Translations under genes and position numbers: made by a program | DNA from: Candidatus Omnitrophota bacterium | Lineage (GTDB): Bacteria > Omnitrophota > Omnitrophia > Omnitrophales > Aquincolibacteriaceae | DNA length: 64,000 nt | Assembly (NCBI GenBank): GCA_030698625.1 | Contig: JAUYMS010000017.1 | Coordinates: 12,962-76,961 of the forward strand | Direction of reading: 5' to 3' | Notes under the pieces: model-generated | What the model saw: only the letters and a program-made list of their open reading frames with translations | Told to the model about the DNA's origin: nothing | Databases searched by the model: none | Shown: in pieces, positions 17,081-44,900 of the stretch | How the letters are laid out: each line of letters begins with the position of its first letter | Position numbering within the stretch: the stretch's first letter is position 1

Positions 17081-17154
17081 AGACTGTCCTCTTAATTTTT
17101 CTCGCGTTTCTCATCACCTCGAATCAAGCCTTCGCTGCCACCGGTGAGAAGGCG

Positions 17155-18687: not shown

Positions 18688-18693
18688 CGTTAT

Positions 18694-19224: not shown

Positions 19225-19225
19225 C

Positions 19226-19471: not shown

Positions 19472-19478
19472 GATACGG

Positions 19479-19487
19479 TGGTATAAT
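19479..19487 (+). promoter_or_regulatory. Extended -10 element (TGGTATAAT) upstream of the BI-1 gene
   Basis: TGnTATAAT at 19479-19487, about 30 nt upstream of the ATG at 19517, which carries a perfect SD AGGAGGTGA. Confidence 0.3.
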
Positions 19488-19516
19488 GTCACTGATATCA
19501 TTCTCACAGGAGGTGA

Positions 19517-20775: not shown

Positions 20776-20959
20776 GGGGATCCTCCTCATGAGGGGTTGT
20801 GAGGAAGAATCACGATCCGACAGGAATACCCTCAGATGCAAGAAACACGCCATGGTGTATAAAGACAAAATTTTAATTCATTAATTATCATAAGCAACTT
20901 CATCAAACCTACTTAGGGAAAAGCTCAAAATGCCGACAATCGCATAAGGATATGTTTGT

Positions 20960-21985: not shown

Positions 21986-23980
21986 ATGTCTAAAAATACG
22001 TCCATTCTTTATCCCTGGATAAAGTTAATTGCCACAGTGACCGTGTGTCTGTTTACGCTCAACACAGTTGCTTGGTCCGCACCCACAGTCCCACAGGCCA
22101 ATATCACGCTTAGCGCACCGTTCAAGTCTCCCGAAATCAAGGACCTGTCGTTACTCGAACGGTTTACGATTCCGCCTCATCTCGGCAGTATCGAAGCGAT
22201 CCATATTCCGCAAGACATCAGCGAGCGCATGGCTTCGCCGACAATCATTCACATTCAAGACGCCCACACCAGCCTCGAAGCCCAGATCAAGATGAAGGAA
22301 TTGATTCACTACCTCCACGAAAAGCACAATTTTGATCTTATCCTGGTGGAAGGAGGCCAGGGTGCGCTAGACGCAGAACGACTCGATTTCTTTGACAACC
22401 CGGCATTAAACCAAAAGGTCGCAACCGATCTCGCCCAGAAAGGGGAAATCGGCGGCGCGGAACTCTATCTTCTAGAGAACCGTGAACAGGGAGCTGAGGT
22501 CGTCGGTGTTGAAGATGACCGGCTGTACTGGGAAAACCTGGCCGCGTTTCGGCGCGTGCTAGCGGGACGCGATAAGTCAGATGATTTTCTCGACAATCTC
22601 AAAACGAGTTTAGGCTCTTTGAGCTCTCTGTACTTCAGCCCCGAGCTGCGCGATTTTACAAGGGATTGGCTGCTCATCCAAGATTCAACCGAAAAGACGA
22701 TTCAACGTTTAGGCGTTTTGAAGAAAGCCGCCCTCGGCCACCTACAGGTCGATCTCGACAATGCCGCCGAACAGAAATCATGGCCGTATTTGGTGCGCTT
22801 TTTTAAAGTGAGAGAGCTTGAGCGCGCGCTGGATTTTAAGCAGGCCGGTATGGAAAAAGGGCATATCGTAGAATGGCTAGCAACGCAGAAACTCGATAGC
22901 TATTGGGCCGAGGGCCTTCAATTGCTCTTTGATGAGGGCAATCAAAACCCGACAGACCCCAACGATGTCCGCAAGAATCCGCGGCCTTTCTTGGAGCGCT
23001 TTTACCAGGCGGTAAAACCGCTCGGTTTTAACTTTGACAAGTACGAAAACTTTGGGCGATACCTCGCTCTTGTAACCCTTGAGCGTGAGATTGATGCCTC
23101 TGCATTCTTTCGGGAAATCCAAAACCTGACAAAGAAAATTACCGTGAGTCTCGCGCACAGCGACGAAGCCGGTCGCCTGGTTGAGTTGCTAGAAGACTAT
23201 CAGCTATGTAAGAAACTGTTTGGCCTGGAACTTACGCGCTCAGAGTTTTCGGCGATCCAGAAATCCCGGGATAAATACCTCCCCCGCGCCATGGCGGACC
23301 GCGCCCTCGCATTTGATAATGGCAGGACAAAGCTGACGTTTAATTCCCTCTCAGACCTCGACGCGCTTTTCCGGTTGGTACTCCGGTTTTACGAAGGGAC
23401 GATGCAGCGCGATATGGCGATGATCGAAAACGCCATGAGCGTCATGAAAAGCAAGAAGTCGAACAAGGCCATACTCGTGACCGGCGGATTTCACAGCGAA
23501 GGGCTTCGCGGACTCTTTGAAGAAAAGGGATTCGCTTACGCGCAAGTGGCTCCGAGAATCTCAGAACTCAATTCGACCGTGAACTATCACGACGTGATGC
23601 AGGGGAAAATCGATGACGTCCTCCTGCAGAACTCACAATTAAAGAGCGCGTTGTATCTAATAGCGCGTAGTAACGTGCGCCCGGAGCGGGCGATTCGAAT
23701 TCTTCGCGCGGCCGGCTTTCGGCCACAGGACCTACTTAACATCCCCGCTGAAAACATCCTCTCCGATCCGAGAACAAGAGCCCTGCCGAATGGAGCGCAA
23801 CGCGACTTAGCGCTTCATTTTCTTAGACTTCAAGTCGCGCTTTATCAGGAACTCAAACAGGCCGAATCCGTAGCCGCGGTGCTCAGTGGACGCACTCAGC
23901 GCACCGCGGACGGATTCGGTTCCGCAGAACCCAGATTTGCCCGTTCCGTAACAGGTGTGGTCACACAGTGGGTGCGCTCA
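21986..23980 (+). other. Shared N-terminal module (copy 2)
   Basis: Hydrophobic leader MSKNTSILYPWIKLIATVTVCLFTLNTVAWSAPT. Conserved blocks IIHIQDAHT (about 22243-22270), GGAELYLL, WPYLVRFFKV, and VTGGFHSEGL (about 23470-23510). Confidence 0.6.
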
Positions 23981-26900
23981 CGCTCGGAACTACGAGCGTC
24001 GTTGGTTGCGACAGAGATGATGCTCTCCGATATTCTGCCTGCGGGTGAGGTCATCGACCGCGTCATTATCGTTGCGGACAATAGCGGCACTCTTACCGAA
24101 CACCGCAAAAAACCCCTGGAGGGAGAGATGCTCAATGCGCTGCGTGCATTTCTGGGCGAGGCAGGCAATGCGCTGCTAGTTAATTCCGGCGATCCGTTCG
24201 CGATGATCACGACCGTGTCTCAGGAGCCTCTTCTTACCTCACTCGACGCGGAATCGGCCTCCCGCATGCGCCTAATTACCGATGGGGGGAAGACAAAACT
24301 CTCAGTAGGCGCGGGCGGTACCATCGAAAACAAAGTAACGGACCCCGATTGGAGCCGCGACGTACAGATCGCGTACACTCGTGCGCTGATTGAAAGTTTT
24401 TATGATGCGGTTAAGAAAAGACACGGACCGCTCAAAGACATGATCGGTGACATAGCGGACAGTACACTGGAGGATTTCAGGGCAGAGTTGCTTGGAAAAC
24501 TTCGGGATGAGGACGAGCTGGGCCGTTGGGGTATACCGTCCAGCGGGGAGCAGGTTTACGAATTCTCCATTGTTACCGATGCCTTACGTGAAAAGATCGG
24601 CGACGTATTTGTTTATGAAGCCGGCTCCAAGGTAACACTCGAGATGGAAAGCGCCCGAGACGCTTATTCTCTGGCGCTCATCCAGGATATTGAAGCGGGT
24701 TTTAGGGCTAGGCACGTCACCGGTGATGGGAGCTTGTACGTTGCGTCGGGAGATTGGTTCGTTGACATTACAGCGACGACGAAGGCTCTAGCCGTTAAGA
24801 AGACATTGGAAGACATCTTCTCAGAAATAGGGCCGGAAGAAAATGTGGTGATATTTATCATAGGCGACGGCGGCAACGATCTCGATACGCTGAATCTGGA
24901 CCTCTCAGGCCGAGCGCACACGGCAGTCATCCCTGTTTTTCTACAGCATGATGAAATTTACGGCGAAGCCTTGCCGGCGCATGCATGGGTCTCGCGGGAG
25001 ACGAAAATGGATGGCGGTCTTGAGGTGGTCCGTTATGCCTTAGGCCTTGTCGGTAAGAAGGTATCCGAGACAGCCGCATTGCCGCTGCTGAAATGGCAGC
25101 GCTCGGAACCGCGCGCTGATGAAGCCACAGAGGCGATTGATCTAAAAGATAAAACCGTATTGCTGCTTCCGGGAGGCGGCTCCCTTGTTGAGAAGATGGG
25201 CAAAGTCCTCTACGAGGAAGACGAGACTTACCGCAAGGTCATGGACGATGCCGCCAAGATCCTGGGGTATAACCTGGCCGAAAAGATTTTTACGCTTTCC
25301 GAAAAAGAGCTCGAGAACCCGATCTATGATGAACCCGCCATTGTATTGACGCTGTATGCGCTTTATGCGTCGGTTGAAGCAGCACTCGGTTATCCGCCAG
25401 AGGAAGGCGCCATTTACGGTCTCTCACGCGGTGCGATTACGGCCGCGATGATTGCCGGCTCACTTTCATTTGAAGATGGGGTGCGTCTTGCACAGCGGTA
25501 CGGCGAGGCTTTGAGCAAGACGCCTGCGGGTGCCATGATTCAGGTCATGGGGTTGCCCGGTGAAACCGTCGAAGGCATTGCCGCGGATCTCGACCTTGAT
25601 ATCGGTGTAGATCTTGGGGAAACACCGGCCATGGGGCACGTCCTGACGATCTCCGGACCGGCTGAGGTCATTAAGGAGGCGGCCCGCCGCGTTGAAGCAG
25701 CGAAAACGGTTGAACACCCGCATGTTCAGGTTGTCCAACTCGCCAATGGGGGTGTGGCCAGTCACAGCCGTGTCATTCAAGAGGCTGTGGATGATATCGA
25801 AAACTTCATTAAGACGCTCGAGGTGCGGAAGCCCTATGTGCCGCTCGTCAGCAATATTGACGGCAGTTTCCTTACGACTGCCGCGCAAGTTGAAAACGAG
25901 CTCTCCCAACACCTGGCTAACCGTATCCGCTTTCCGGCAGTACAAGAAACACTCAAAGCCGCCGGTGCCAACCGGTTTATGGAACTCGGGACCCGCCGCA
26001 AGGGTGTGCTGTCACGATTCCTCTATAAGACTGACCCGCGGCCGGAATACGTGGACGCACCGGCCGCAGGCGATGCCACCAACTGGGAACGCTTCGTCGC
26101 GAAATTCAAGACACCGGCGATGCCCGAAAGGCTTGTCACAAAGCTGCGCAGCGTCAACCAAGAAGGTGCGGACAATCTCAAAGTATCAGATGAAAACGAG
26201 GAATACCGCCGGCACTGGATCCGTACGAACCAGCTGATACGTCAGGGGCTTGAGGAAGCAGGCGACGGCGGCACGGTCTTATTGTTCGGGCTTGGGAATG
26301 GTAATGAATTCGCAGAACGTTACAAGCGAGAAGATCCGGACTTTTTAACATTGGCGGATCTTGCGCGCCGCGTCGACCGTATTGTTGTCTTTGAGGCCGA
26401 TCCCGAATCCGCACAGCGAACCATTGCCTCGATTGGGGATCCCGCCCTCGAAGCCAAATTCACACTTGAACTCGGAGACGTTACGCGCTTAGGGGCCGCG
26501 TTTGCGCGAAAGGCCGGAAAAGTCATTCAGACATCCTCGCGCGATGATGTGATTGAAGACCTGACCGAGATGATTTCTCAGATTAGGATTCCGGTTATGG
26601 ACTACAGCGAGTACGAAGCCTCGCTGGTGCTTGCACCGACTGTCCTCTCACAGATATTTCTCCATACGCGCAGGGCTCTCTATGAGATGCTCGACGAACA
26701 ATTCGGTGATTTTGGAGGCGTTAACCTTTCGGGTCCCGAAGACGAAAAGCTGCCGCTCGCTGTTGCCATGTCCATGCTGGAGGGAGACATTCACCTCGCC
26801 TTTCTCCGTTCCCTGCGGAGGGGTGTCACCGACGACGGGCGAGCCGTCATTTCGTGGACGAAAGACCGGGTTCAGGGTGTTACGTCAGAAGACGGAGTGT

Positions 26901-29900
26901 TTACGGTGAAACATACGGAATATTTGCTATTCAGTAATTACATTAGAGATGTCATGGAGCTCTTCGAAGGGGAATTCGCTGCTTGGCACTGGATGCTCAT
27001 TTCGGATTTTCAGTCGCCCACCGGCATGAGTGTTGGGTTTAATGTGCAGGGGGCTTTGCTTTCCCCGAAAGCCGTTGATATGAACTCGCTGTCGAAACCC
27101 GGCGCGTTTTTGCCTTTGGTGAGCACTAAGAAAACAAAACAGGCGATGGCGGCGGGAAAGAAACGCGATCCGAACGAACCGCTTCCGCACGGTGCCGAAT
27201 GGCGCTTTGAGCGGGTGCGTGAGCCGGCTGACAGCCGAAAATATCTGCGGTTGGCCGAAAAGGCGCAGCGCTTGAGCCGTGTTTATTCGGCCGATGCGTC
27301 TTCGACCGTCGCTTTCTACTTCATTTCGCGAAGCCTCCGGGAGTTTGAAGAAAGAGGCGAACAGGCCTGGGAGATTTTCGACCACACCGGCCGCACCGTC
27401 GGCTTGAGTGTTCTTTCAAAGCCGAGATCCGATACATTGTCTGCCGAGCTTCGGAGTCTCATCGCCGCAGGCGGGGAGCTTGCCGAGCGGGAAACCGCGA
27501 TTATTCCCGAGTATCAGCGCCGCGGCATCGGGGCAGGTATCGGTATTGAGACCTTGCGCTACCTGCAGGACCATGCCGATGAAGGCATACGTTTTCTTCA
27601 TTCCAGGATTGATTACGGCCATGAGTCGTCTTTTCGCTTTCTGCACCGGGCGGCCCAGGAACTGGGACTGCCGATCCGCCTTGTGCCGGGCCCCGCAGGG
27701 GAAACCGGGGCACATCATCTGCTGGTTGATTTGTATCCGACAGAAGACCGCAGCGATGAAATTAAGACGATCATTAAGGAGTTTGCGGGACTGTCAGCGA
27801 ACATCGACAAGGCGTGGGAACAGTTGCAGAAACTGGAACAGACCGAACGGTCCGAATTAAGAGCCACGCCTATACATGACGAGCGCCTCGGGGAGCGCGC
27901 CTACATCAAAGAGTCCCAGACGGCCCGCTTGCAGGGCAGTGACCGGTTTCCGGCCGGCTATCGATCCCTTTTTATCGGCAACGGTTCCGATCCCTATCCT
28001 GTCGAAGAGGCCCGCTTGGGTGCGGTGAGTGACGCTATCGATACCCGCTATGGCGACGAAATAATGGCAGGCACCGAGAAAGTTTTCCGCGAGGCAGCCG
28101 ATCGCTTTAGTATTCCGATGGTAGGGGAGCAACCTGTTCTCAGATTCCTCCGCGGCGACATCAACGACCGGACAGAGAGTGAGACTCAGGCGCAAACGAT
28201 CGCCAGGCTTCTCGGCCTTCCGTCGGCAGAAGATGCCCTTGACCATATTTCGGTTCTGGATTTCTTTATCGATCCGGGCGATGCCGGTCCCACCGGGTCC
28301 TTTGATTTTCTGCTTCGCAACGCGATGCAGGCACAATTGCTACAGCGCGGAGTTCAGGGAATTGTGGAAGACAGTGTGCGCGCGGAGCCTGCTATCAACC
28401 TTTTCAAGGCACTCCTGGAACTCGTAAAGCCCGGAGGGACGATCGAGTTCAGCGAGGAGCCCCTCGTCCCGGAAGGCCGGTTGCCGGTCACGGCCTTCAG
28501 CGTCTTCGAGACCCTGCTGAAAGACTCTGGTTATCAGGAAGGCCGCGATTACCGGCGCGAGATCGTCGGCACAACCAACATCGAACACAATGGCATCGCC
28601 CTATATACCATTCTCAATAAACCCGAGCTCGGTCCGGCACAGATTGACGTGCAATTCGCCGGGCGAATCGAGAGATGGGGAGCTGAGAGAGGGTCCGATG
28701 AAGATATGGCATCGGCTATCCACGACTTTTTCCTTGGCGGCAGCGAAGACACCCTGGCAGTGGCCGAGCAATTGTTTGGCGAGGCGATACGAATGCGCGA
28801 TATCGAAAAAATCGAAGCCCGTCACTTTGCCCATGACCCCGTTCTCCATATGTTCGATGCGAAGATGACTCTCAAAGACGGAAACAGCCGGGATTTCTCT
28901 CTGATCCTGCCGGTCGAAGTGGGGGATGAGGAGTCCGATTTTGTTCGCGGTTTCAGGAATGTAGAAGAAATGCAGCGGCGCGGTTTTACAAACACAATCA
29001 AGCTGCTGCGGCTAGGCCGCGGGCAGATCGCTGCGCGGCACCCGCAGATGAATGGTAAGCCGCTGGCGATTGCTGCCGTGGAAGATCTCGGGGGCTTTGC
29101 AATCCTCCAGCCCCGCTACTATGCGCGGGCAGATTTTAGCGTACGGGGCCTGGACAATAGTAACCGGGTTCTCAGAGAAGTGAAAGTATTCGAAGAACCC
29201 CTTCCGGTGCAACACGCCATTCTGAGTGAAGTGGGAAAGTATATGACCCTCCTGACCGGGCATGAACCCGATTCGGATGAGATCAGCTATGTGTCGGTCA
29301 ATTTCGGGCTCCGTGATGTGCTCACCCGAATTTATCGCGGCCACGACTTTGATATCAAGACGCTCTTAGTACGCGGCATCGCGGATAATCGTAAGCCTGA
29401 GAATTTCCTGGATTATTTGATGGGCGGTAGGTTCGTCTTGCTCGATGGCCGCGCGCTCTTTCCTGTGGAGCCCCTGCTAAGGGGTATCGCCATGGGGCTT
29501 ATCGAGAAATTCGGCAAACAGGATGGCAGCCGCTACTTCAAAGACTGGATGCAGCGCTACAGAGAAGTTCTTAGCAACCGCGCCGAAGCATTGCGTGCCT
29601 GGCAGTCCAAGCTATACGATGGGGGAGCGAACCCCAGAGATTTTCTGGACGCGGATCTGGTGAGCTGGCTCGAAATGCAAATAGAGGATGCCAAAAAGGA
29701 CGAAGACCTAGCGGTTTTCTATCCGTGGGGCACGGAAAAATTCGAAACCTATCTTGAAACCGGCAAACGTGATTCCGACGGAACGATCGTTAAATTTCCG
29801 GCTGCGATCCTCAAGGTCACAGAGCGCGTCCTCGCGGCCGTGGAGGCCCTGCCGAAAACGCAAAGTGAAATACAAGCATTTGCCGCGGAAAGACCCGAGA

Positions 29901-32900
29901 TTCGCTTTGCCGGACCGGTCGATCAGTTGCCCGAACGATCCGAGCTTAGAGCCGACGATCCGTGGCATGAGACGCAGCTTGCTTATCTTATGCAGCAATC
30001 CGATGAAGCCTACCGCGACGCAAAAATTGGGGAGCTTGTTGAGGCCGGCCAGTTCACTCGGAGTACTCGTGATGCGACCGTTCCCGCAGCCTCCCGTGTG
30101 TTGGAGCAGCAAAAAAGCGAGACAGCGCCTATTGGTTACTTCAGTAGCCTGCTTCGCCTTGCCGGCGGCGACGAGGTCGGTGCATCATTTGAAGCGCGCT
30201 TCGGAACCGAAGGTTCTGTGACCGTCGATGAGGTCTTTCATTACTTCTTGGAACAGATCGATACAATCACCCATGAAGACGGCACCTCAATCGTTAACGA
30301 CTCTCTGCTCGACACCAACGAGAGCAAGAAGAGATTGTTGAACGAAATCTATCCGGTAATCCTGTTCAGTTTTGCCGGAATTACGCGGAAGCATGTCACA
30401 ATTCCGTATATTTTTCACCTGCTCGGTGTTGCCCTGCTGACGGTTCAGACCCTTGCGGAGAGCAACATTACCCACACCCAGCCCCGGAACGAAAGAGAAG
30501 CGTGGGTCATGGATATGCTCATCGCCTCGCTTTACCATGACCTCATTGAAGATACTGCCTTCTCCCCGTTCAACCTCGAGAAGTTCACATCGCGGAAGGC
30601 GCGGTTGCGCATTGAAGCGCTGACGAAACTGGATGTCCTCGAGAATATAGAGGGTATTCCGGCAGAACCCCTGGCGAAGCTCAAGAAACGAATTGAGAAG
30701 ATCAATTATACGGAGCTTAAAAAAGGCCCTAAAACGCTGGTGATCAAATTCGCCGACCGCATGTACAACCTGGCCGACGCGTTTGTGACCGCAAACTTTC
30801 TTCGCGGTACTGACGAGGCTGTGTTCGCGACGGCGGAGGCATTTCGAATCAAGTACGTGACCCAAACTACGGGAGAAGACGGTTTCCTTGCAAATCTTGT
30901 TTATGGGGAGAATCTCCCGACCGGCGAACCGTGGTTCATCGATGTGGCCAATTTTTTTGTCGCGCGTATTAATGAAATTACCGGAGAGAGTAACCCGCAA
31001 TTGGCGCGGGAATCGGAGGCGGCACAGGCGGGGGAATGGATCGATCTGCTGGATCGTGATTATGAGCGTGCCCGTCAGACGCTCATGAGTATGGAAGCCG
31101 ATGAGCGGGACAGAGTTCGTCTCGACGCGATCGAAGCGCTCAGGAATGAAATTGCCAGGATGCATCGAGGCACGATACACCTGGAGCCCGTTACGGCATT
31201 GACTCAGGACCTGAAGGGCGACTATACGGTTCGGCGCCTTACTTCATTGAGGGAAGACCTCGTTGTGAAGGACTTTGACCATGCGGAAACCCCGGGCTAT
31301 GAAGGAGATTATCTTCGGGAATCCCGGCATATCAGTCAACTCGTAGCGCGCCGCGGTACGGAAGAATATCTGATGCGGCTCAAGCTCTTCTGGCTTCAAA
31401 CGCTCCCCGAAGATTTTTCGATCGTGCATGTGGCCAGCGGCGTCAATTATATACCCTCTTACCTCTTTCCCTACACCGCAGTGACTTTGATGACGGTCAA
31501 TGCCAGTGCAGCGAACTTTATCATGTCTTCTGTTACGGGCATTGATGACAGTGCCTGGAACCTCAATCTGATAAAGAATCTCGATTACAGCGACGGCATA
31601 GACGCTCTTGATATTCCGAAGTTGAGGGGTGCGATCGACTCAAGCCCGCAGGCGAAACCGTCGCAGCGCGTTTTCTTTTTTAGCAACTTCGAACCCTGGG
31701 CCCGAAACTCCTGGACCTTTTTCGAAAATCAACGCACCCGTTACCGGACGAAGGAACCGCCGGCCGACCTTGCGGAAACCTGGGCGCGTGAAGCCGACGA
31801 AGGCCTCATTCGAGAGGGCGATACCCTGATTTTTTCAGGCGACGGTGACAGCGCTATCATGGAGGCACTTATCGCGCGAGGGTTTGTGGAGTTGCGCTAC
31901 CCTGCGGGCGTCCAAGAGAGCCTATTGGCAGCCGACGCCGGAGATTACAGCGTCAACTATATTGACGACCAGTATATCGAATGGGCCCGGACATTTCGCG
32001 TTTTGCAGAAACCTTACAGCGATGCGGCTGCAACTGAGACCGATCCTATCTCGAGTGCGCAATGGGTGAAATCCGATCGCTCCGAGCTGCGGGAAGATAC
32101 AGCGGTAGATACGGCAGTCAAAGTGGGGGCGGTGGTCGTTGGAACCGCCGCGGCGGGCACTGCGGGTTACTACCTATTAAGGAAGAAAGGCGACGGCTCA
32201 GGTAAGCCGGAGCCGATTCGGGTTGAGGCGCGCCAGGTCGGCCGGCGCGAATTCATGCAGACAAGTACTGCGGTCATGGCCTCGATGTCGCCGGCGGCGA
32301 AATTGTTTCTCGGCCAAGCGGCGGCTGAAACCGCGGTCGAAACAGTCGCCGGCACATTTAACGCGCAGACGGAAATGATGTTTGCCATTGCGCGGGCGAT
32401 CAACGGGATCGCGCGGGTCGAAGACGGAAGCTCCTCCGGCGCTCCGCTCGTAACTGATATCCTGCCTTGGCATCTGGAAAATAATCCCGACCTTATGCCC
32501 GACCAGGTCGAGGCCTTGAGAGAGAAAATTCTCGTCGCGCAAGATCACGTCAGCAAAAGTGTTTCGAAGCAGATATTCGCGCGGGCGTCCCGAATCCAAT
32601 TACCCGAGGGTATTTCGAATAGTACCGAATTGGATGAGTTCGTCAGGAAGTTTTTGTTGCCGCTCACCCGCACGTTGGGTAATGAGGTCGGCACGATCGT
32701 CAAAGGCCTCAAGACACGCGCCTTTGCGCAGATGGCGCTCCGGAAAGCAGCAGAGACGGCAAAACCGGCAGGGCTCAAAGATTATAATGCTGAGAAAGCA
32801 GCGAAAGCCGAACAGGGACAGCAGTACGCTGACTACGCCAAAGACGAGGCTGCGCGGATTTTCCGTATCGAGACGGCGCTCGAAGATAAGCGCCGGCGAT

Positions 32901-35900
32901 TTTCGGCCGAGTATGACCGCCTGCAGGCAGAACTCAAAATCGTACGTGACGAAGCAGCAGAGCCGCTAATCGGTAGTGACCTCGGCGGTGATCAGGATAA
33001 GCACTATGCCCGCTCTCTTTTGCCGATCCTGGCGGCCGAGGCCAAGGCACTGGCCGCAAAACTCGGGGAATTGAGAACTCTTATCGGGATCAGCCGCAAG
33101 CGCCAGAAGGCAGAAATGTGGTACGACACGGAGTTGGGCAATCTTGCGAATTCGTTCGGCCGGAAGATCGATACTTACCTACAAGGCTTCCGCAGAAGCG
33201 GCGAGGCCGATCCCAAACCGGCACTTCAAATCATTACCGATTTCCTGCGTGAGATCGGACGCGAGGACTTGTTATCCACCCTCGAACTTTACCAATACGA
33301 CAATCCGCAAATCAAGGACAATAAAATGTGGGCCGTGATTGTCGACGGCCATCAGACGTTGGCGTTTCTTCAACTCAGCGGTACCTACCACGTATCCCTA
33401 TTGAATGACCCCGTTTACTACGGCAAGACGACCGAAAAGGGTTTTGAGGCGCGCGGTAACGGAGCCCAGCGGGGTGCGCGGCTCTTCCTGCGGTATTTTG
33501 CACCGCGCTCTCTGTATCCTGAAGAGACGCAAGGCGACGTTTCCGTTGTGAAATTGCCAGACGGCCGTACGATCGAGATCCTCCGCGATCCCCAGCTGCT
33601 GGGCCGCTACCTCAGTCTGACCGTCAAAGACGCAGACGGCAACGAAATCAGCCATAGCGTGGAAACGCTCCATACGGTTGTTGAGCTCGGAGCGCCGGAG
33701 CCAAGGACAAAGTATGAATTTACACGTCGGGACGGCAAGTATGTCCTTCTTCCCGCACGTTCCGAGTTGCGCAGCCAGGGCGCGTTTACGTTTTATGAAA
33801 AAGACGAGCCGATCCTGCATGTGCAGATTAACGTGAGCCCGGGTGGCGACTCAGCCGATTTTAATCTGGCGGCGATCGAATCCGCGCTCTTAGGTCTCAT
33901 GAAGACCAAGAGGGCACTGATCAAGTCGGCGGACCCTAAACCGGAACTTCTGTGGCAGATCAGCAAGGCGGGCCCGAACCTCGCGATCGGTGACGAGAAT
34001 AGAACGATTTACCCCATTGCGGTTGAAGGCGCCCGGCCTTCCCTGCTGCTTAAGATTAAAGATCCCGGAAACGCGAGTAACATTATTGCCACGGCTTATA
34101 TCCATGAAGTCTCGGGCGAAATCGTGAGCGATTCCTTTGCGAAAGAACGCGAAATTGCCCGGGAGGCGGTTGCCAGACTAGACCGCAGGACTAAAAAAAT
34201 AGAACGGGTCCTAATTGTCGATGACGAAAGCAACCGGCGCGCCGTGGTTCGCCGCGTGCTTCGCGATGCCAATAAATCAAGCGAAGAGACCGAATACGGT
34301 GAAGCCGAAAACGGCCGCGATGCCGTGAACGTATTTCGTCATAGCACTTATGACCTGGTGATTACGGATATGGATATGCCGAATGGTAACGGCGACGAGT
34401 TCATCCGGGAGATCCGCCGCACGGCCGGCCCCAAGGTGCCGGTCATTCTCTTGAGCGGCTCACAGTGGGCGCATGAGCAGGTCCGCAAAAAACTCGGCCC
34501 CAACGCGATCAGCCTGGCCAAAAAAGGCTCGGGCTACAACGCCAACCTTGTCCTGCAGTTCGTGATCGAAGAACTTCAAAATCAGGTGCGGCGCTCCGAG
34601 CTGCGCCTCAGTATCGGGGAGATCGAGCAATTTCTCAAAACGAAGCAAGAGGGGCTGATCGCCGGTTATGCGCAACATTTTGTCGACGATATCGCGAGCC
34701 TTTCAGACGAGGATATTCAACAGGGGATCCGGGACTTCTCTTTGGATGAGGAAGTCTATGGCCGGCCGGCGCTTGATGCGGAGCAGTTAGAAGACCGCAC
34801 TCCCGAAGGCCGGTACGCCATTGTGACGGAAGCCCTTTTCCGTTATCTCAGGGCACATCAGGGGCGCGTGGCAAACTATGCGATTGAGTTGGCGCGAATG
34901 GTTTCTGACAAATTCCCCGATGAATTTAATTACAACGATGAAGAAGCCCGGAAGTTATTCAGGGTCTCTGTCCTGGCGCACGATATCGGCAAGGTCAAAG
35001 TCAAACCCTCAATCCTTCTCTTTAGTAAGGGGCTATTGAAAGGCGACGATTTGGAAACGATGCGCTCTCATGCCGCGCTCGGGGCGGATATCGCCCGTGA
35101 TTACCTGAATGAGATAGGCGTGGATCCGGAGGTTCGTGATTCGGTTGTGAATGTCGTCAATTTCCATCACGAGGATTGGAACGGAGAGGGTTATCCGCAG
35201 CGCCTCAAGGGAAAGGACATTCCCTTTTTGGCACGGCTCGTCCGTATTGTCGACACCATGGAAGCGATGCGCCCTCTCATTCCGCGCTTCCACTCCTATA
35301 AGAGTTCCACGGTTGCTCAAGTGATGGGGCTGCTTGAAACAGGCAAAGAAAAGTATTTTGACCCAAGCTTGGTCGACATTCTCTTAGACGGCATCCGCGA
35401 GGATAAGGCCACGGCGCGGCGATTCGCGGGGTTGCTTCTCACGGATTTAGAGACGCTCGATGACGCGCTGGGCATCGAACGCTCCGAACTGCGGAGTTCA
35501 ACAGAAACCGCGGATGATGATTTTGAACAGCAGCTGGCGGACGTTGCCGAAATCGTTCAAAACTTAGTCCGAGGCACGGGAGAAGCCTCAAAGTCAGCCG
35601 TGTCTATCGTCATGAGCCTTGCCGAGAGCGGCTATTTCCATCCGCACCAATCGTGGCTCCAACGTAGACGTCCGTTACAGGGTAGTCAATTGGAAGCGCA
35701 GCGCCGCCGTATAAAGCTCTCCTTTACCGATGCGCCTTACCCGGGCCATACCCCGGAAAATGCTTTTTTTAGCCTGACGATCACGGGAATCCCGAACAAT
35801 GAAAGGCTGCGCAACCTCGCCGCGGCCCTTAAGGAAGCTCATATTGTTTCTGCGACCTCCTCGTTGGATCTGCTGGTCATTTTAGAGGCCCTTGTAAAAC

Positions 35901-38900
35901 AATTGCCCTCAAGTAATTTTGACGCAGAAAAGCTGCAGCAATTGGCGGCTCGCGTACAGGCGGTGAACGAGGAGTCGGGTACGTTGGGATTGTCTCAGGT
36001 ATTGCTTGCATTACGCGAGCTCACGAAGAACCACTTTTTCCATCGCAGGGGATTTAACGATGTCATGCGGGCGATAGACGTTTTGGAGAGTATTGCTGCG
36101 GACGAGCGGCGGGAGCAATTATTCAGTCTATTCTATTATCTCAACAAGGAAGAATTCTTTCTTGAAAGGGGATGGTCGCTCGCCCGAATTTCCCGAGGAC
36201 TCGTGCTGATTGTGTCAAAAATCCCTGTTGTGAATTTTATCCTTGGCCTTTTCCTGCAGTGGTTGTGGATGAGAGCAGAGTGGCTCGTCAGTTTCTTTCT
36301 TGCAGAGAAGCAAAGTGTGTCGAGACTCGAGTGGGCCGGTCTTGCGGCATCGTCGGAAGACCTGCAAGAAATTACTTCTGCGTGGGCGAAACTCTCGCTT
36401 TCTGTAGAAAACAGGGGAATATCGCGCAGATTCTATCTGAATGCCCATTTGTTAAGGCAATTGGGCCCGAAAGGGGCTCGCGCGGCTCTCCCGTCGTGGA
36501 TGAGCAGGTTGGAGGTTTGGGAGAAAGATCACGCAAGGGAATTTTTATCTGAGGCGTTTCTGAGCGGCCCTGTAGATCAACCGGATGCCGCATCCCCGCA
36601 GCCTTCAAGTAGTCGTGCCTTGAGCACAATGATTAACACCAGGCTGTCCGATAGTTTTCTGAACCTGGGTCCCGGGATGCCTGGCGATAGAAAAATCGGT
36701 GTCTATTACGGCTATCTGCTTAACCATATTCTCGCCCAATCGATCGTAGATACGGATAAGGACCCTGCGCACTTAAAGCAGATGGCTTTTGAACTTGCCG
36801 CGCTTCTCATCGCGGATAAGAAGGTCATGCCATGGGTTGTCATTGCGGTGCTGGATGAATTGGAGCTGTTTGAGGCTAAGCAGGAGATTGTAACGGTTGT
36901 CGGCACCGCGGCGGCGATTGCGGCCCATCATGGTGCCGATTTCAAAGAGGAGCTGTATTCAAAATTTCTGACGCACAGCATTCCGAGAATTGCGTTGGAA
37001 TCGCCCGAATTACCCATGGAGTTCAGCGCGCTTCAGCGGGCGGTGGCGGGAATCCTGGGTTTTTATCAGGATGAGCGTTACGCGTTGGATCTGATCAAAG
37101 TGACGGGCCGCTATCTCAGTGATGAAGGCCGTCCCGATGTGATCGCAGATCGCATAGCGGAATTGGACGCAGTGGAGTCGATCCATTTCGAGACGCCGCG
37201 GATTCGAAAACAGGTCATTGACAAACTTGCACGTGTGCACACCCGGGCCCAGGGCAGTCGCTTTTTTGTCAGCGATGAAGTGCAGCAGCGGCGGCAAGAA
37301 GTCCTCGAAAACCTGAGGGCTGAGAAACAGCCCGCGCGTATTGTGACTGCCGGGCTGCTGGCAGAGTTTGAAGAATATATAAGCACGGTTGCCTCTGAGG
37401 ATGAGATCGGTCTTGTGAAGTCGCTAAATCGATACGGGCACTTGCTGCATAGGAACAGGAGAGGGGCCGTACCATTTGGGGCCTTGGGTGTGCTAGGGAC
37501 GCCGGGGTCGCGTTGGCACGACGAGTTCCCGGCCGTGAAGCTGACAAATACGAGTCTCGACGAAGTCGATATCTATGAAGGTTACGATGGCCCGAACTGG
37601 CTTATGGGCGAGGGTTTCAGCAGTCGAGCGGCGTACCGCGCGGTGCAGGAAAAAATCCGTGATGCGGTCAACGCCGGCCGTATTGACTATGCGAATGCTG
37701 CTGCCGTCATGAACGCTCAAGCAAAGCGAATCGAACGCTCCGAACTGCGGCTTCCCGGTGAAAAAGTAGCGGTCATCGGCGGGGCCGGATTTGTGGGTGC
37801 CACCGAGGCGTCCATGCTTTCGGCTCGCTTTGGCCATGATGTCACGGGCGTCGACATCAAAGACGAAAGCGTGAAGTCGCTCAATGGCGGCACATTGGTC
37901 AATTATGCCCCCGGCCTCGAAGAAATTCTCCAGGAGGGATTGAACACGAATCGCCTGCGGTTCACAACACATTTGGAACAGGCGATCAAGGATCGCGAGT
38001 TTATTTTTCTTGCCTTGCCCACACCCTATAAGGAAGACACCGGGGAGGCGGATATAAGTTTTCTCGAGAACGCCGTGCGGGACATTGTCCGCCTTGCGGA
38101 ACCCGGAAAGAGGAAAATCATCATCGGTAAAAGTACGGCCCCTCCTGCCACGGCGAAACGTCTGAAGGAAATTATTGCCGAAGAACTCCCCGAGGGAGCA
38201 GAAGTGCACCTGGCATGGATCCCCGAATTCCTGCGCGAGGGCATGGAAGTCGAAGACGCGTTGGGCGGATCGGGCCGTATGGTGATCGGTGCCGACAGCC
38301 CGGAGATCGCGGAGCGCGTCGCGTCTCTTTATGCGCCGGAGAGAATCAATCCTAAGTACCCGACTCGAAACCCGAATCGACCGGGCGAGCCCATCCCCAT
38401 TGTCAAAATGGGGATTGAAAGCGCCATGCTGGTCAAATACGCCGCGAACGGTTTCCGCGCCACCAAGATTTCCTTTATTAATCTTATCAGTTGGTTTACC
38501 GAAGAGCTCGGTTTCAAAATTGGCGACATCTCGGCAGCGATTGGCGAAGATCCGCGAATTTTGAAACCCTTTTTACAGGCCGGGTGCGGTTGGGGCGGAT
38601 CGTGCTTCCCGAAGGATTCTTTATCCTTTCTGCGCCAAGTCGTAGATGCCGGAATCCCTTACGGATTGATGCTCGATACCTTTGCCGTGAACGAAATCCA
38701 GTGGAGGACCTTTGTCCACCGGATCGATGAGCAGTTAAGCGGCGTAAAAGACAAGACCGTTGTCATCTTGGGAGGTTCCTTCAAACCGGGAACGAGTGAC
38801 GTAAGGGAAGCCCGCTCGATCCTGATTATCAAAGAGTTGTTGAGTCGGGGTGCCCGCGTGCGGGTCTTTGATCCCGTTGCCATTCCCTTTTTGAAGAAGG

Positions 38901-41900
38901 AGTTTCCGGGCGAGGCGGGCATCGAATATTTTGAGGTTTCCGAGGACGGCCTCGAAGCAGCTGATTACGAAAGCATGAAGGGTGCGGATGCCGTCGCGCT
39001 GGTGACCGCATGGGAGACTTTTAAATCCTTGGATTTTGAACACCTCAGAGATGTGACTTTTTCCGGCAGAGCCCTTCCGACGATCTTTGACGGCTTCAAC
39101 GGTTGGAATCCCGAAACCCTGGGGGGTCTCGGTTTTAGTTATACGGGGATCAGCCATAATAAATTTGATAGTGACCTGGTCGGAGAAGCAACCGTCGATA
39201 ACCAGGAGGAGTTTGTGGAGCTTACCAAACAACTCTTTCTCGCCCTTCGAGTCTCGTACACCAATATGCTTGCAGAGATGGCCGAAGCCGCGGGTGCCGA
39301 TATTCGCGAGGTCCTGACGGGAATCGGCTTTGATCCGGTTATCGGTCCCGAGCATCTGAAGCCCGGTCTCGGCTTTGGCGGTTTACACCTTTCCCGTGCC
39401 TTGGAGCGTTTTGAGAGCATGGCGGTGGCACTCAATTTCCGCGCATTCTATTCCGCAGAATACGTCACACGCAGACATCAGATTCAGGACCATTTTGGTT
39501 TTGGAAAGAACGGAATGGGGGATAGCCCGGACCGCATTCCTTTTGTATCCGCGATTCGTGAGGAAAATGAAAGGTCCATCAGGCTACATGTGGATATGAT
39601 ACGAGAGGCAGCGGGGGGTGACTTGACGGGAAAAAAAATCGCGGTTTTGGGGTTGGCATATAAGCCCGGTACCAACGTCATTGACAACGCGCCTTCTGTG
39701 AAATTGATAAATACGCTGCTTGAAGCAGGCGCAATTATTCAGGCGACCGATGAGGATGAGCAGGTCATAGCGAAGATCAAACAGGAGTTCCGTCAGGTTG
39801 AGTCCGGGCGACTTCAGTTTTTCGCGGATGCCCGCGATGCAGTACAAAAGAGTCAGGTTCAGGTTTTGGTGACCGAATGGCCAAGATATCGGGATTGGAA
39901 TGATTTTGTCTTCGAAGCAGCTCAAGTTAATTTTGTCGACGGCCGTCATTTTTACGATCCCGCGGAGTTCAAGAACAGCGGTATTAATTACTATGCCATA
40001 GGTGTTCCCCGCGGCGACCGTGATCGCTCCGAGTTACGTTCAGAAGAAGGTCTGGCGTCCACGGTGTTTAAGATGCTCGAGTCATTCGACAAACCTTTTA
40101 AAGACAACCGGAAGGCCATTACGGATTATATCCGGCCGCTCGGTCGGGAACAGAAGATCGAAGCTTTCAATCTGCTTGTCGATGTTCTCGTGGATGCGAC
40201 GGCCAAGGGGCGGGCGCGCGAACTGGCGGGCCGTGTCCTTCCTAAAGTGATCGAAGATCTCGGCCGGGACGACAAGGTCGACAATGTGGCCGTCATTCTC
40301 CCCGCGCTGCGCAAGGTGATTGCAACGATTGATCAAATCGTGAAAGGCATGCGGCCGAAGACGCGCGAAGAAGGGATTTTCGTTTGGTATGCGATGGACT
40401 TTGTCGAAACCGTTGAAGACTATGCGAGCGGCAAGAATATTCAGCATGTCGTAGACAAGGCGCTGGGGAACAAGCTCAAGAACATCGAAGGCGAACTCGG
40501 CACCATTTTCTGGATCCGTGAAGTAGACAGCCCCTGGTGGAGATTCGAGGGCCAGACCGAAGACCTTGGTTATCTGCATATTTCCGCGCGTCATCATGCC
40601 AAAGAGCTCAAGCGTGTCGCAAAGCGGATCAAACGGCCGGCTGAAGATACAGAAGAACGTGAGACGCCGGAGGAGTTGTGGGCGCGTGCGGTTCGGGCCT
40701 ATGAAGGCATGGGTCTTCTGCGGCAGCAGGCCCTGATCCTGTGGCAGCTGGAAAGCCGCGACATGACCGCAGAGAATCCGCATCAATACGAGATCGAAGA
40801 CAAGATTCATGAGATCGCACGGCTTGCCGCGGAATCTCGGCCCGTCTTTGAAGGCATCACTGCAGATCTAAGAAAAACTTACACAAAGCCCTGGCCGAAG
40901 CGCGACCCAAAGAAAAAGACTCTGTTCCCCGGACTCTCAGCTCTTCCTTCTGAGCAGGTAGCACTCGAAGCGGATGAGCGCATGATCGAGAAGCCGAATG
41001 GCATGAAGCAGGAGCTTGCGAATCAGATCTTTGGGCTCTTCGCCAAAATGAAACGGCATTCGAAAGAGATTGCGCGTTGGGGCGCGATTACTACGGGCAT
41101 CATCAATAAGATTCAGGAAGGCTCCAGCGAAGATCAGGGCGTTGCGATCAAGGAGCTCAGAGAAATCATTCGCGAGCGGGCCTATCCGGAACTCGAAGAA
41201 CTTTCACGGCTTTCGGCGGAGATCATGATGACAATCGGATGGCTCGGGACGACCACTGAAGAAGATCACGCCGCCGAGATTAATGCAGCGCAGGACCTGG
41301 GCCGACAGATTCGAGAAGCCCTGCGATCGGATCCGGATGACGATGGAAAGGACACCGAAGTAAGAGAATATCTCAACTCCGAAGAGTTCCGGGAGATGGA
41401 GCCCAATGACCGCCTGGGAGCCGTTATCGATCAACTCAGGAACAATGGCCTCAATCTCGACGGTGAAAACATGAACGACATCTACAATAAACTGCCCCTG
41501 CAGCTTGGCGACTATGTCAGCCGGGACGACATTACGACCTATGACATGGAAGCTTCCATATATAGAAAGATCCGCGAAGCTGTTGCCGACCCGCAGATTC
41601 AGCGGTTCCTTCTCGCGGAAGATTTCATGAAGCTGGATCCGCTGGAAAGGCTTCCCGCGCTCATTGCCGAAATTCGCCAGGCTCGGCTGCCGCTTGACGC
41701 CGAAAACGTCATGCAGATCCGGCAGGCCCTGCCGCGCGTGCTGGCAGACCATACCGAGGTCACAAGACCTATTAGTGACGACGGCGAACTGGGTGAAGAA
41801 TACGAAAAACGGACTCAGATCTTCAAGCAGGATATTCCGGCCCTCGACCTGCCTTTCAATGTCTTTGTGCAGATGCGGGATCTGGTCGAGATGAGTGAAG

Positions 41901-44900
41901 TTCAATCGTATCTGGATTCTCCGGAATTCCGTGCTGTTCCCGCCGAACGGAAGCTCGCCACATTTGTCGCAAAACTTCAGGACGGAGAGACGGGCATGAA
42001 TTTCATTCTGGAAACCGATGACTTGGAACTTATCCACCGTGCTCTTCCCGAAGATCTCAGTAACAAGACGAAAAAGACGGAGATGCCGTTACCGGTCGCC
42101 GAAGACGCCGAGGCGGAAACCGCCGGCTATCTCGGCTGGGTGCGGCCGTTTCTCGATTTCTTACGCAAATTGTTCCGGGCGGCGGTCGAGTACTTTCCGA
42201 ACCGGATTCAGTTGGGCCGCGACCGCAAGGCCGTGGAACAGGCAACGCGTGTTGCTTTTGAAACACGGGCCATTCACGAAGAGTCCCGCAAATACTATCT
42301 GGATATATTCGAAGAAATCGAGAAGCTTCGCAAAGCGACCGGTCGCAACACCTTTCCGATCGCCGCAGAAGACACTTATGGGCTTAGCCCCGAACCCGCA
42401 TCACCGCCTGCAGTTGACCCTTCCGGTACAGGCCGCTCCGAGCTGCGCAGTGATTTTGAGGTTGCGAGGGCGGCTACGCAAGATCAATTGAAGGAATTGT
42501 TGGGGCAGCACTTTGCGATCGAGGTCCTTGACGATGCGCTGACCGATCGCTTGTCGCCCGACATCTTTACTTTCTGGTATGCCCTTATTAAAGCGGCGCA
42601 CCTCGACAAATCCGCGCTCAGGAGAGTGATTTTTACCCTGTGGGACCGGGCCCATGAAAAGACCCTGGTGTATGAGGGGAAGGAGATTGAGTTAACGGAA
42701 ACCGACAAGCTTCTTTACCATAGCCAAGGCGGTTATCATAAGGATACGAGTTCCGTCATCGTAAATACCTCGGGTACGATGCCCCTTGCGATGATTGTCG
42801 CGCACGAGATCGGCGAAGCGATTGTTAAGGTTTACGGATTCCGCTATTACCTACCCGAATCGCAGCATGAATACCTGGTTCATTATGTCCTCAAAAGTCT
42901 TCTCAAAGAGGTGGATCCGAAATATATCCAGGAATATGACGATGCAACGTCGGGCTCTTTAGGTAAGGTCGGATACGACGTGAGCAGGAGTAGAGTCAGC
43001 ATGATCGAATCCGTAGGGAATGCGATTCTGAAAAACGCGAAATTTGCGAAGGCGAAAAAGAGAGCAGGCTTTTTGCCCGAGCTCGAACGATTCGAAGAGG
43101 ATGTCCCGTGGAGTGCGTTACGCGATAAGGATCCCGCCGCGAGATCCAAAACATATTTCAAGGAGGGCGACCGGGTCGTCATTGACGTAAGGGGACGGGA
43201 GGGGCCGTATATCGGGAGTGGTGTTCTTGCCGTGAAAGGAGTAATAAGCAGTGTGAACCGTGACGGACAGAGTGTCTACGTCAACCTCGTCACCGACAGC
43301 GGTGAAATTCAAAACTCGGTATTCGGAACAAATATTGGCGACGCCAAATTGTGGAAATGGGATGAGGGAAAGGAACCGTTTGTGCCCGAGGGCGGAGAAT
43401 TACGGAAGGAGGAGTATACTTCCGTCTTAGAGCTTCCCGCCGCCATCGCGAAGGCACTCTGGGATGATGCCAGTTTTCTCACCGTCGGTGAGCTGAGAAA
43501 TGCCCTTGGGATGGGCTTGCTGCATCTTATCCCGGGCATTGATTATGAAGCGATTCGCACAATCAGAGAGAAACTTGCGAGTGTCCGCTCCGAGCTGAGG
43601 GCTGAATACGACGCCTACATTGTTTCCGGTGCGGAGAGGGCCTTAAGGCCGGCCGGTGAAGTCAGTCGCAAGGGCGCGAACCTGTTGACGATGGCGTCAC
43701 TCGGTCTTCCGGTTCCTGATTTTGTTATTGTGACGACGGACCTCGCCAAAGACCGGGGCGGCAATATCGACTTTGATGAATTGGCTGCGGCATTGACCGC
43801 CCAATTCGAAGGAAAGCTTGGCGAGGATTACCGCCTGCGTGTCAGACCCGCGGCGATTGAGACTATGCCAGGGGTTCTGGATACTTATGCCGGTATTGCA
43901 TCGGGCACAGATCTCGCGGAAGCGCTTCGTCGGGCCTACGCACAGTGGGAGGACCCTTTTACCTCGGCTTATCGAGACGAATTTGGCATTCCGCATGATT
44001 CGGGAATCGCGATTACTGTGCAGGTCGAAATCAATGTGAGCGGAACTCCGAAAAGTGCTGCAGGTGCTTTTCATACGCGTGACCCGAAAAGCGGAGAAGA
44101 CCGGCTGACGGGAACTTATTATATCGGAGCGCCCGGGGAAAAGACGATGTCGGGGTCTGAAGACCCGGCCTTCCGGACCGTCGAAGACCATTTGCAGACT
44201 GACTTTCCGGATCTTCATACGAAACTTGTCGAAATCAAAGGCATTCTCGAAAAGCATTACGGGTACCCGCAGATCGTGGAGTTCATTATTGAAGACGGCA
44301 AGATTCATCTTCTGCAGACCGATCATATGGACCTGGATGAGGCCGGCATCGGCGAACGCGTCATGGACGACATGTTCCGCCAGAAGCTTACGAGCATCAA
44401 GCGTATCACGGCTGCCCGCAAGGCCCGTGAAGCGCTCAAGGTAGCGATTAGGGCGGTCCGCGAAGACGCCAAAAAGGAAACAGTGCCGGGCTTCGCGCTT
44501 TCGCGCGGAGCTGCTGTGGGAGTCCTGGCTTTCTCACTTGAGGCGGCCGAGCGTTACCGGGCGGACGGCAAGCAGGTAATCTTGCTTGTGCCGGAGCGTA
44601 ACCGCGCAGTGTGGACGGCGATGATACAAAAGAAACTTGACGGTCTTCTGCTCCTTTTCGGTAATTACAATATGCATGAAGCCCGCATTGCACGGCGCAT
44701 CGCCCTGCCCGCGGTTTCCAGTCTGGAAGACCGGGAATTCGACGGCGCATCCTTTCGGGTTGGCAATATCTCGTTAAAGGAAGGCGACCGCATTGCCATT
44801 GACGGAAACACGGGCAAAATCGTGCTGCCCCAGGGCCGGCATGTGCTCGAGACCGTTGCGGAGACTGCGGTTGAGACGGCCTCGGAAGTGGATCCCGAAG

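Follow-up and report, generated by a model that had tools for sequence, protein, structure and literature searches.

The locus described here raises the question why a single bacterial gene should join enzymes that share no recognisable pathway. The analysed stretch, in the following called the window, comprises 64,000 nucleotides of a Candidatus Omnitrophota genome (contig JAUYMS010000017.1). Within it, a first-pass annotation made from the sequence alone had flagged positions 24050-44830 as a concatenation of unrelated metabolic and second-messenger enzymes. The flagged stretch corresponds to aa 689-7615 of a single unbroken open reading frame (ORF), G2 (21986..48319), encoding 8,777 amino acids (aa), and domain searches confirmed that such enzymes are indeed united in this one chain. 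Two paralogous giants lie in the same window: G1 (445..13536, 4,363 aa) and G3 (48511..64000), which continues beyond the window end and has a full length of 5,493 aa as library protein P0003. Together the three ORFs occupy ~86% of the window; they and all features within them given below lie on the plus strand. We find that G2 is a chain of ~15 protein-equivalents, i.e. a head, 13 cargo modules and a tail, delimited by RSELR/RSEPR junctions. The G2 family is a very large, essentially Omnitrophota-specific set of motif-punctuated polyproteins, an architecture of which we are highly confident. From it we infer, with a lesser degree of confidence that nonetheless favours this outcome, that the modules are released by proteolysis at the motifs.

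To see how the chain is subdivided we considered the pentapeptide RSELR. It occurs 31 times in the window compared to 0.05 expected copies, with 13 copies in G2, 13 in G1 and 5 in the visible part of G3. All of them are read in frame within the three giants, and the motif was not found at any other place of the window in any frame. In G2 the first boundary is located at 23981..23995 (aa 666), and the further RSELR copies, 15 nt each, start at 27848, 29936, 32078, 33758, 34592, 35480, 37736, 40025, 42434, 43586, 46313 and 47435. An additional boundary at 25100..25114 (aa 1039), between a HAD module and a FabD-like module, reads RSEPR. It is the sole deviation among the 33 sites of the three giants, and the relative P0095 has RSELR at this place. 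The proline may block processing, such that the HAD and FabD-like modules are kept joined. With RSELR at 32 of 33 sites the junction is unusually strict in this genome; in other genomes position 4 may also be V, M, A, T or I. The RSELR sites make use of every synonymous codon and the flanking DNA is not conserved, which shows that the constraint acts on the peptide; a DNA-level repeat was ruled out on the same grounds. The residue following RSELR is usually small and the second one acidic. The sites were not accompanied by any conserved signal at the nucleotide level, e.g. a ribosome-binding site.

The same kind of code is found throughout the family, i.e. among the proteins that share the N-terminal head described below. 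In 150 representatives of the head family R[SA]ExR occurs 574 times, compared to 22 expected occurrences. Frames of at least 1200 aa contain 1.34 sites per 1000 aa, but ordinary-sized frames from these loci only 0.08. Family-wide the first site closely follows the head, and modules have a median length of 262 aa. A second dialect, [AG]-x-S-L-G, is used by 17 of the 86 classifiable members (among them P0103, P0116, P0112 and P0085, as well as locus L042) and R[SA]ExR by the other 69, while no member uses both. The dialect matched the relatedness of the heads in 85 of 86 nearest-neighbour comparisons. Among 67 aligned sites, 36 are retained as valid motifs at sequence identities of 20-90%, and 30 of these 36 differ only at positions 2 or 4. 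At one locus, L002 (JACPXL010000034.1, ~nt 9967-13210 and downstream), a head ORF of 1,081 aa lacks the motif, and directly downstream an ORF of >2,800 aa in a different frame carries four R[SA]ExR sites. Both are probably parts of a single giant gene split by a frameshift, be it a sequencing error or real. This locus represents the single apparent case of a headless giant among the fetched loci, which contained few N-complete headless ORFs.

The motifs mark the edges of protein-sized units. None of 57 sites falls inside an annotated domain, where ~13 would be expected (P<1e-4). Canonical enzyme N-termini are located 0-32 residues downstream of a site, and many modules frame exactly one enzyme. 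Module M1a (23996..25099), the HAD module of G2, can be followed through several chains. It is bounded by RSELR and RSEPR in G2, by RSELR on both sides in P0095, where it is positioned elsewhere in the chain, and by GSSLG and AASLG in P0112. The module moves singly between chains, and its neighbours are wholly different in the relatives. A free-standing homolog of 402 aa, P0151, was found in another phylum, the Margulisiibacteriota. It ends with ...KQWWSA*, which is the exact point where the giants read KWQ-RSEPR, KWS-RSELR and KWQQ-AASLG. The cargo of the paralogs and of other members comprises HAD-IIB, MoxR AAA+ and VWA modules, histidine phosphatase, APH kinase, methyltransferases and flavin oxidoreductase. 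The HAD module of G2 was ruled out as a paralog of the HAD-IIB module of G1, to which it has no similarity.

Outside of the junctions the three giants are alike only in their first ~540 residues (29-33% identity). In G2 this conserved head covers 22163..23575 (aa ~60-530) and is preceded by a hydrophobic helix at aa 7-30. A profile search with the head retrieved 9,006 representative clusters at E<1e-3 and 4,795 at E<1e-30, and the head was always located N-terminally in long proteins. Nearly all of the 44 genomic loci with head relatives are titled Omnitrophota/Omnitrophica, and the closest relative of the G2 head is annotated as Omnitrophica as well. No head relatives were found on viral contigs. 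The predicted head has an erythromycin-esterase/ChaN/TraB/TIKI-like fold with a core parallel beta-sheet flanked by helices. All 86 heads compared have H94, E122 and H503, while position 92 is D in 79% of them and N, E or T in the others. The TIKI superfamily, which includes sequence-specific endopeptidases, carries a 2His/2Glu catalytic set consisting of E-x-H, an E 28 residues on and a further H (PMC6254334). The spacing of 28 between H94 and E122 in the heads is that of H85-E113 in Bcr135 and of H3902-E3930 in RRSP. The head differs from the TIKI/TraB/PrgY/erythromycin-esterase/ChaN superfamily by a ~300-residue helical insertion between the two core halves, by the lack of a sequence-profile link and by Asp or Asn as the first acid. 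It had no match in Pfam, NCBIfam or PHROGs. Since Foldseek and sequence profiles do not recover the link independently, we assign the head model to the TIKI/Ere/ChaN/TraB fold group with moderate confidence.

The opposite end of the chains is conserved in a different manner. The G2 tail module M13 (47450..48316, 289 aa) ends with ...QTLAAAA. Among 151 head-family proteins, 110 end with -AA or -SA compared to 1.4% expected, and all three giants of the window belong to them: G1 ends with ...SSAA and G3 with ...AIAA. The C-termini concerned are located at 48230-48316 (G2), at 13450-13533 (G1) and at the end of P0003 (G3). The -[AS]A endings are preceded by an amphipathic helix, and the last module is narrow in size, with a median of 273 aa. 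The tails do not form one sequence family, as an iterated search starting from the G2 tail reached two others only. In 5 proteins the motif is found just 3-5 residues before the ending, e.g. ...RSEIRKAA. Possible roles of the -[AS]A tail are that of an ssrA/ClpX-like signal, of a PDZ-protease signal or of a secretion signal.

Targeting signals are found at the beginnings of some modules. At 13 of 574 sites, compared to 0.45% of random positions, a textbook twin-arginine translocation (Tat) signal peptide follows the motif within 35 residues. This fivefold enrichment (P about 3e-6) was obtained again on repeat. Hydrophobic anchors after the motif were enriched twofold, while the enrichment of lipoprotein boxes after motifs was not significant, at low power. 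In G1 a canonical Tat signal (AMSRRGFLERVMKTAVLASLSL..., window 12007-12129, aa 3855-3895) starts one residue past an RSELR, such that the junction reads RSELR followed by AMSRRGFLERVM... The G2 module M4 (from 32093) begins with a hydrophobic stretch, after which comes GRREFMQTSTAVMAS...AAKLFLGQAAA. A Tat signal functions only at a free N-terminus and from the cytoplasm, and the signals found therefore favour cytoplasmic cutting at the motif over an export of the whole chain. That they are of textbook quality and conserved between homologs argues for a current use.

We then characterized the cargo of G2 using Pfam, NCBIfam, PHROGs, a PDB sequence search and a homolog search, as well as a structure prediction for M1a. 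Ten distinct families or domains (Pfam, NCBIfam) are spread over the chain and none of them dominates. From the eight domains listed by the first-pass annotation, the HAD, FabD-like, RelA/SpoT HD core, receiver, HD-GYP, dehydrogenase and PPDK-like domains held, while the GNAT domain remained below threshold. The HAD assignment was verified by the fold of the predicted M1a structure, a compact unit (predicted local distance difference test score, pLDDT, of 87.6) with a Rossmannoid HAD core, a C2B cap and motifs I-IV. The RSELR-bounded module, suggested earlier for structure prediction, is the right unit of analysis. The PDB sequence search with M1a was without match. In G2 motif I reads DNSGT, in which Asp+2 is replaced by Ser; for HAD modules of this type the motif is DN(S/T)GT, and there is no Pfam model. 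Judged by these sequences, they look like an undescribed HAD subfamily in which Asp+2 is replaced as in P-type ATPases.

The FabD-like acyltransferase (25151..25993, aa 1056-1336), which contains GLSRG and ASHS motifs, scored above the Pfam threshold (Acyl_transf_1, E 2e-9, 37.6-40.7 bits, cutoff 32.7), in line with the earlier call. TIGR00128 matched with E 2.8e-35 and 122 bits. This score is below the equivalog cutoff of 260.9, so that the module has a FabD-like acyltransferase fold and is not a FabD equivalog. The possible GNAT at 27227..27649 (aa 1748-1888, motif YQRRGIGAG, in which QRRGIGAG resembles motif A) is sub-threshold: the Acetyltransf_3 match covers profile positions 10-134 of 138 at E 0.06 and 14.4 bits vs a cutoff of 25.4, and the region had no PDB match, no PHROG match and no homologs. 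The assignment of aa ~1748-1888 as an acetyltransferase is thus not established. For the proposed RelA/SpoT-type HD hydrolase (30512..30775, aa 2843-2930, with HDLIED at aa 2851-2856) TIGR00691 provided a local match of ~88 aa only (E 1e-6). In the PDB sequence search 7 of 9 matches were RelA/SpoT hydrolase domains that covered the same 88 residues (E 0.002-0.03). The signatures PYIFH..VA and LYHDLIEDT are present, and the region had no Pfam HD_4 match. Support for the RelA/SpoT-type assignment is therefore confined to the HD core and does not extend beyond it.

Further downstream, the CheY-like receiver (34208..34465, aa 4075-4160, E 3e-16) and the HD-GYP domain (34856..35371, aa 4291-4462) were both confirmed, the latter by an HD_5 match (E 2e-12, 47.5 bits vs a cutoff of 27.2) and by readable LAHDIGK and HHEDWNGEGYP motifs. 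The nucleotide-sugar 6-dehydrogenase (37760..39109, aa 5259-5708) begins 3 residues downstream of an RSELR and comprises N, central and C domains. It has kept the catalytic Cys, contains GGSCFPKD and matched TIGR03026 with E 4e-120 and 401 bits (curated cutoff 189.8). The duplicated C-terminal part that had been noticed before is a degenerate second copy of the central and C domains without the catalytic Cys (39188..39985, aa ~5735-6000, BLASTP E 4e-12). The PPDK-like module (43664..44824, aa ~7227-7613) consists of an ATP-grasp part and a phospho-histidine swivel. It aligned to PPDK residues ~204-506 with the phospho-His kept, and no PEP/pyruvate barrel domain was detected. Matches were confined to PPDK positions ~20-506. 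Since they stop short of the barrel, this is a partial PPDK-like phosphotransfer module.

Modules M2, M4, M7, M9, M10, M12 and M13 had no match in Pfam, NCBIfam or PHROGs, and M2 had none in the PDB sequence search either. Together with parts of other modules, roughly half of the G2 chain is without detectable family, in agreement with the large unassignable segments described earlier. KS, A, C or T domains were not found in G2 (Pfam, NCBIfam), nor were a glycosyltransferase, a carrier protein or a condensation domain. The earlier statement that the chain follows neither nonribosomal peptide synthetase nor polyketide synthase logic (NRPS/PKS) and no recognisable pathway was thus correct. Apart from the N-terminal helix, G2 contains a single strong internal transmembrane (TM) helix at 46748..46810 (aa ~8255-8275).

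The paralogs carry other cargo. G1 contains a head, 13 RSELR sites, a HAD-IIB module and membrane modules. Seven strongly hydrophobic helices, mostly paired, are found in its successive RSELR-bounded modules (7054-9552, aa 2204-3036) and apparently belong to small membrane proteins with two TM helices each, for which the modules code. The cargo of G3 includes, next to the head and the RSELR sites, VWA and MoxR-type AAA+ modules at 55354-56643, which gave a weak VWA match and matches to a MoxR/dynein-type AAA_5 ATPase. MoxR AAA+ and VWA proteins are usually encoded by separate partner genes of one operon. Their joint presence in G3 fits a fusion of operon-like gene sets into one ORF. Between G1 and G2 (window 13760-21706) ordinary-sized genes are located, none of which contains the motif. 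They encode an M24 aminopeptidase (minus strand), a transketolase split into N and C genes, a gamma-glutamyltranspeptidase, a NUDIX protein, a Bax1-I family protein, a 219-aa ORF without assignment (minus strand) and a MORN-repeat protein.

How could such a chain be used by the cell? Each family member consists of three parts. The N-terminal head of ~540 aa has a leader helix that is hydrophobic and a hydrolase fold of Ere/ChaN/TraB/TIKI-like type, in which a His-Glu-His set is invariant. It is followed by a variable string of cargo, whose modules are each broadly equivalent to a protein that ordinarily stands alone, be it an enzyme, a regulator, or a membrane or exported protein. A tail module of ~270 aa with an amphipathic helix and [AS]-A-COOH at its end closes the chain. 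Most lineages have R-[SA]-E-x-R as the junction peptide, in this genome in the form RSELR, while a minority has [AG]-x-S-L-G. In the mechanism that we propose, the chain would be made as one precursor and the junction peptide would be recognized by a sequence-specific endopeptidase, which would cut the precursor at or next to the motif in the cytoplasm of the producer. The UDP-sugar dehydrogenase, HD-GYP, (p)ppGpp-hydrolase-like, FabD-like and HAD modules would thereby be released as cytoplasmic enzymes, while other modules carry Tat or membrane signals of their own, which would direct them further. The TIKI-like head may itself be the endopeptidase, although we hold this only tentatively and consider it rather doubtful; alternatively, a trans-acting protease encoded in the genome could read the motif. 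The enzyme mix of G2 is best explained as gene packaging and not as a pathway. We judge the chances to be even that cellular polyproteins make up a substantial share of the Omnitrophota proteome in general, with thousands of genes whose junction code would be recognized by a dedicated endopeptidase, which might be the head, to set free cytoplasmic enzymes, Tat substrates and membrane proteins.

A number of observations weigh against this proposal. Within the literature searched we found no report of a processing or cleavage of these proteins. Apart from the head as a candidate, the window encodes no endopeptidase, and its other proteases are limited to the housekeeping M24 aminopeptidase and the gamma-glutamyltranspeptidase. 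The Tat signals after the motif could be fossils of gene fusions, and in the small set of the [AG]-x-S-L-G dialect they were found at 1 of 113 sites, a comparison that is under-powered. An RSELR at 34592-34606 (aa 4203) lies between the receiver and HD-GYP, which together match one RpfG/NosR-type response-regulator phosphodiesterase model. Since these two domains normally form one protein, the equivalence of module and whole protein is not strict, and cutting at aa 4203 would separate the receiver from its output domain. For the head as the protease, the first acid of the 2His/2Glu set, mostly D and not E, is unfavourable. A search of PDB sequences with the head profile returned no superfamily member and one spurious short match, and Foldseek on the head model gave nothing significant. 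Furthermore, the head might be located outside the cytoplasm, as its leader helix resembles a Sec signal or signal anchor. As a reader of the motif the head is disfavoured by the absence of dialect-specific residues at any head position and by the fact that the three heads of the window, being only ~30% identical, accompany one strict RSELR.

The alternative that comes closest is an unprocessed beads-on-a-string mega-protein held by its N-terminal helix as an anchor, in which the motif would be a linker for a docking, chaperone or modifying factor or would serve co-translational folding. We consider it unlikely. A 2026 preprint sees multi-enzyme giants as membrane-anchored chains with cytoplasmic content (10.64898/2026.06.07.730766). 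The RSELR between receiver and HD-GYP, which normally act in cis, the lack of cleavage reports, and a conserved head and [AS]A tail suggesting that the precursor is handled as one unit would all fit such a chain. A strictly invariant pentapeptide with free flanks exceeds, however, the needs of a linker, and canonical Tat signals and membrane anchors right after the motif cannot work internally. The free-standing homolog that stops exactly at the motif is likewise not expected, and since the cargo sets are unrelated between paralogs, a benefit from co-localisation is not obvious. The first-pass suggestion that G2 could be a single secreted or membrane-anchored product is not supported. Its enzymes need cytoplasmic NAD+, ATP, acyl-CoA and phospho-relay, and Tat signals directly after the motif, as found in the wider family, make sense only with a release of modules in the cytoplasm. 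For membrane attachment the chain offers, besides the hydrophobic helix at its N-terminus, a single strong TM segment further inside. The related idea of a coherent toolkit, in which G2 would act as a single multifunctional tailoring enzyme combining sugar oxidation, acyl/acetyl transfer and phosphatase activity in a surface-glycan or small-molecule pathway, appears highly improbable. The UDP-sugar dehydrogenase, the HAD module as a sugar-phosphatase-like enzyme, the acyltransferase and the possible GNAT could in principle act on nucleotide sugars, but the set is not conserved, given that the HAD module moves alone and has wholly different neighbours in relatives. Receiver, HD-GYP and RelA/SpoT-type HD modules as well as a PPDK fragment are moreover unsuited to a glycan pathway, for which a glycosyltransferase, a carrier protein and a condensation domain were not detected.

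Processing could also take place elsewhere. Predators exist among Omnitrophota, and a predatory or episymbiotic cell might export the precursor, similar to MARTX toxins, and have it cut at the motifs in the host or prey, perhaps by the head, such that the released enzymes would rewire host metabolism and second-messenger signalling. Conserved ends around a variable effector array parallel MARTX toxins, and TIKI-fold proteins include MARTX and type III secretion effectors (RRSP, HopBA1). The signal-like N-terminal helix and the conserved C-terminal peptide could serve as export signals, while a cargo with (p)ppGpp hydrolase-like, HD-GYP and receiver modules would suit the manipulation of a bacterial host. 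On the other hand, RTX repeats, a C80 cysteine protease domain (CPD), a type I secretion system (T1SS) or other secretion parts were detected neither in G2 nor in the window. Tat signals after the motif imply a Tat-competent cytoplasm, most simply that of the producer, and the multi-TM modules of G1 are typical of a cell's own membrane proteins. Also the extreme abundance of the family per genome, with three members making up most of the window, argues against delivery, to which, as well as to its effect on a host, we assign a low probability. A separation without proteolysis, by 2A-type bond skipping on the nascent motif peptide or by internal translation starts, would agree with the constraint falling on the peptide and with the Met that some modules have kept among the first 4 residues past the site (8.7% vs 6.8%, P 0.046). 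This Met enrichment is marginal, though, and a ribosome-binding site or similar nucleotide signal does not accompany the sites. No bacterial 2A-like mechanism is known, and five residues with an unconserved upstream region are much shorter than known skipping or stalling peptides. We therefore regard this explanation as very improbable and retain cytoplasmic proteolysis at the motifs as the preferred one.

Giant genes in bacteria count as a recognised puzzle. The code, the conserved ends, the module shuffling and the signals after the motif together make it directly testable whether giant genes are cleaved. The strict junction code in addition provides a rule for dividing giants into units of protein size that can be annotated and have their structure predicted one by one; with M1a, the one module for which this was tried, a sequence without family match became a confident HAD fold. 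The junction layout accounts for enzyme mixes without pathway sense and recasts 'giant proteins' as packaged ordinary proteins. If processing occurs, bacteria would organise and express genes in a way that is new, and a new pair of protease and site as well as a new C-terminal signal would be part of it. Inferences on proteome size, topology and metabolism of Omnitrophota would then need revision, because internal signal peptides are now discarded.

Concatenated multi-enzyme giants are already known from Omnitrophota. Like G2, they are very long ORFs tiled by unrelated Pfam families, with large dark regions. The families in published giants include methyltransferase, GNAT, HAD, HD, receiver and sugar-metabolism enzymes, and post-translational cleavage has been suggested in general terms, while a boundary motif, a conserved head or tail and a polyprotein logic are contained in neither of the two papers (10.64898/2026.06.07.730766; 10.1101/2023.11.21.568195). 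West-Roberts et al. 2023 stated that missing information on cleavage points blocked an analysis per module (10.1101/2023.11.21.568195). In the Methods of the 2026 preprint, signal-peptide calls that are not at the extreme N-terminus were downgraded as chunking artefacts (10.64898/2026.06.07.730766), such that internal Tat and Sec signals after junctions would be hidden in this pipeline. The comparison of G2 with published giants proposed in the first-pass annotation thus holds for the tiling of one chain by many families but not for size, since with 8.8 kaa G2 remains below the threshold of 10 kaa (10,000 aa) at which the catalogues begin. Searches of the literature on RSELR, Omnitrophota polyproteins and Velamenicoccus proteomics revealed no junction motif or processing report. 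Relative to the two papers and the literature searched, the junction code with two dialects, the conserved head and tail, the shuffling of modules with fixed edges and the signal peptides directly after the motif are new.

Outside of this phylum, MARTX toxins provide a bacterial precedent. Like members of the G2 family, they are single chains with conserved termini and variable, shuffled modules, and their effector RRSP has the TIKI fold to which the head is assigned (PMC6254334). Their effectors are freed by site-specific autoprocessing, whereas release from the G2 family is what we infer. MARTX toxins are cut at Leu-X sites and carry the TIKI-like domain as cargo, while the G2 family has a strict pentapeptide and the TIKI-like domain as its head. 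Pfam and NCBIfam searches of G1, G2 and G3 gave no RTX-type repeats, C80 domain or T1SS context, and in contrast to MARTX toxins the cargo includes Tat- and membrane-targeted proteins. A closer formal analogy exists to viral polyproteins of picornaviruses, potyviruses and the nidovirus replicase, in which, as in G2, unrelated protein-equivalents are encoded in one ORF and separated by a short conserved junction peptide with lineage-specific dialects. A dedicated protease reads these junctions and is often encoded in the same chain, for which the head is the sole candidate in G2. The G2 family, for which such a cleavage is proposed, differs in being cellular, chromosomal and massively paralogous and in a cargo of ordinary metabolic, regulatory, membrane and exported proteins. 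Cellular precursors that are cut at a repeated short linker are exemplified by the LHCPII and RuBisCO-SSU polyproteins of Euglena with their decapeptide linkers and by the polyprotein allergens of nematodes (RxKR). These are tandem copies of one protein, while in G2 every module is different. If the polyprotein system is real, it would be the first general, heterologous one in a cellular organism, and its junctions would provide a cleavage map for bacterial giant genes.

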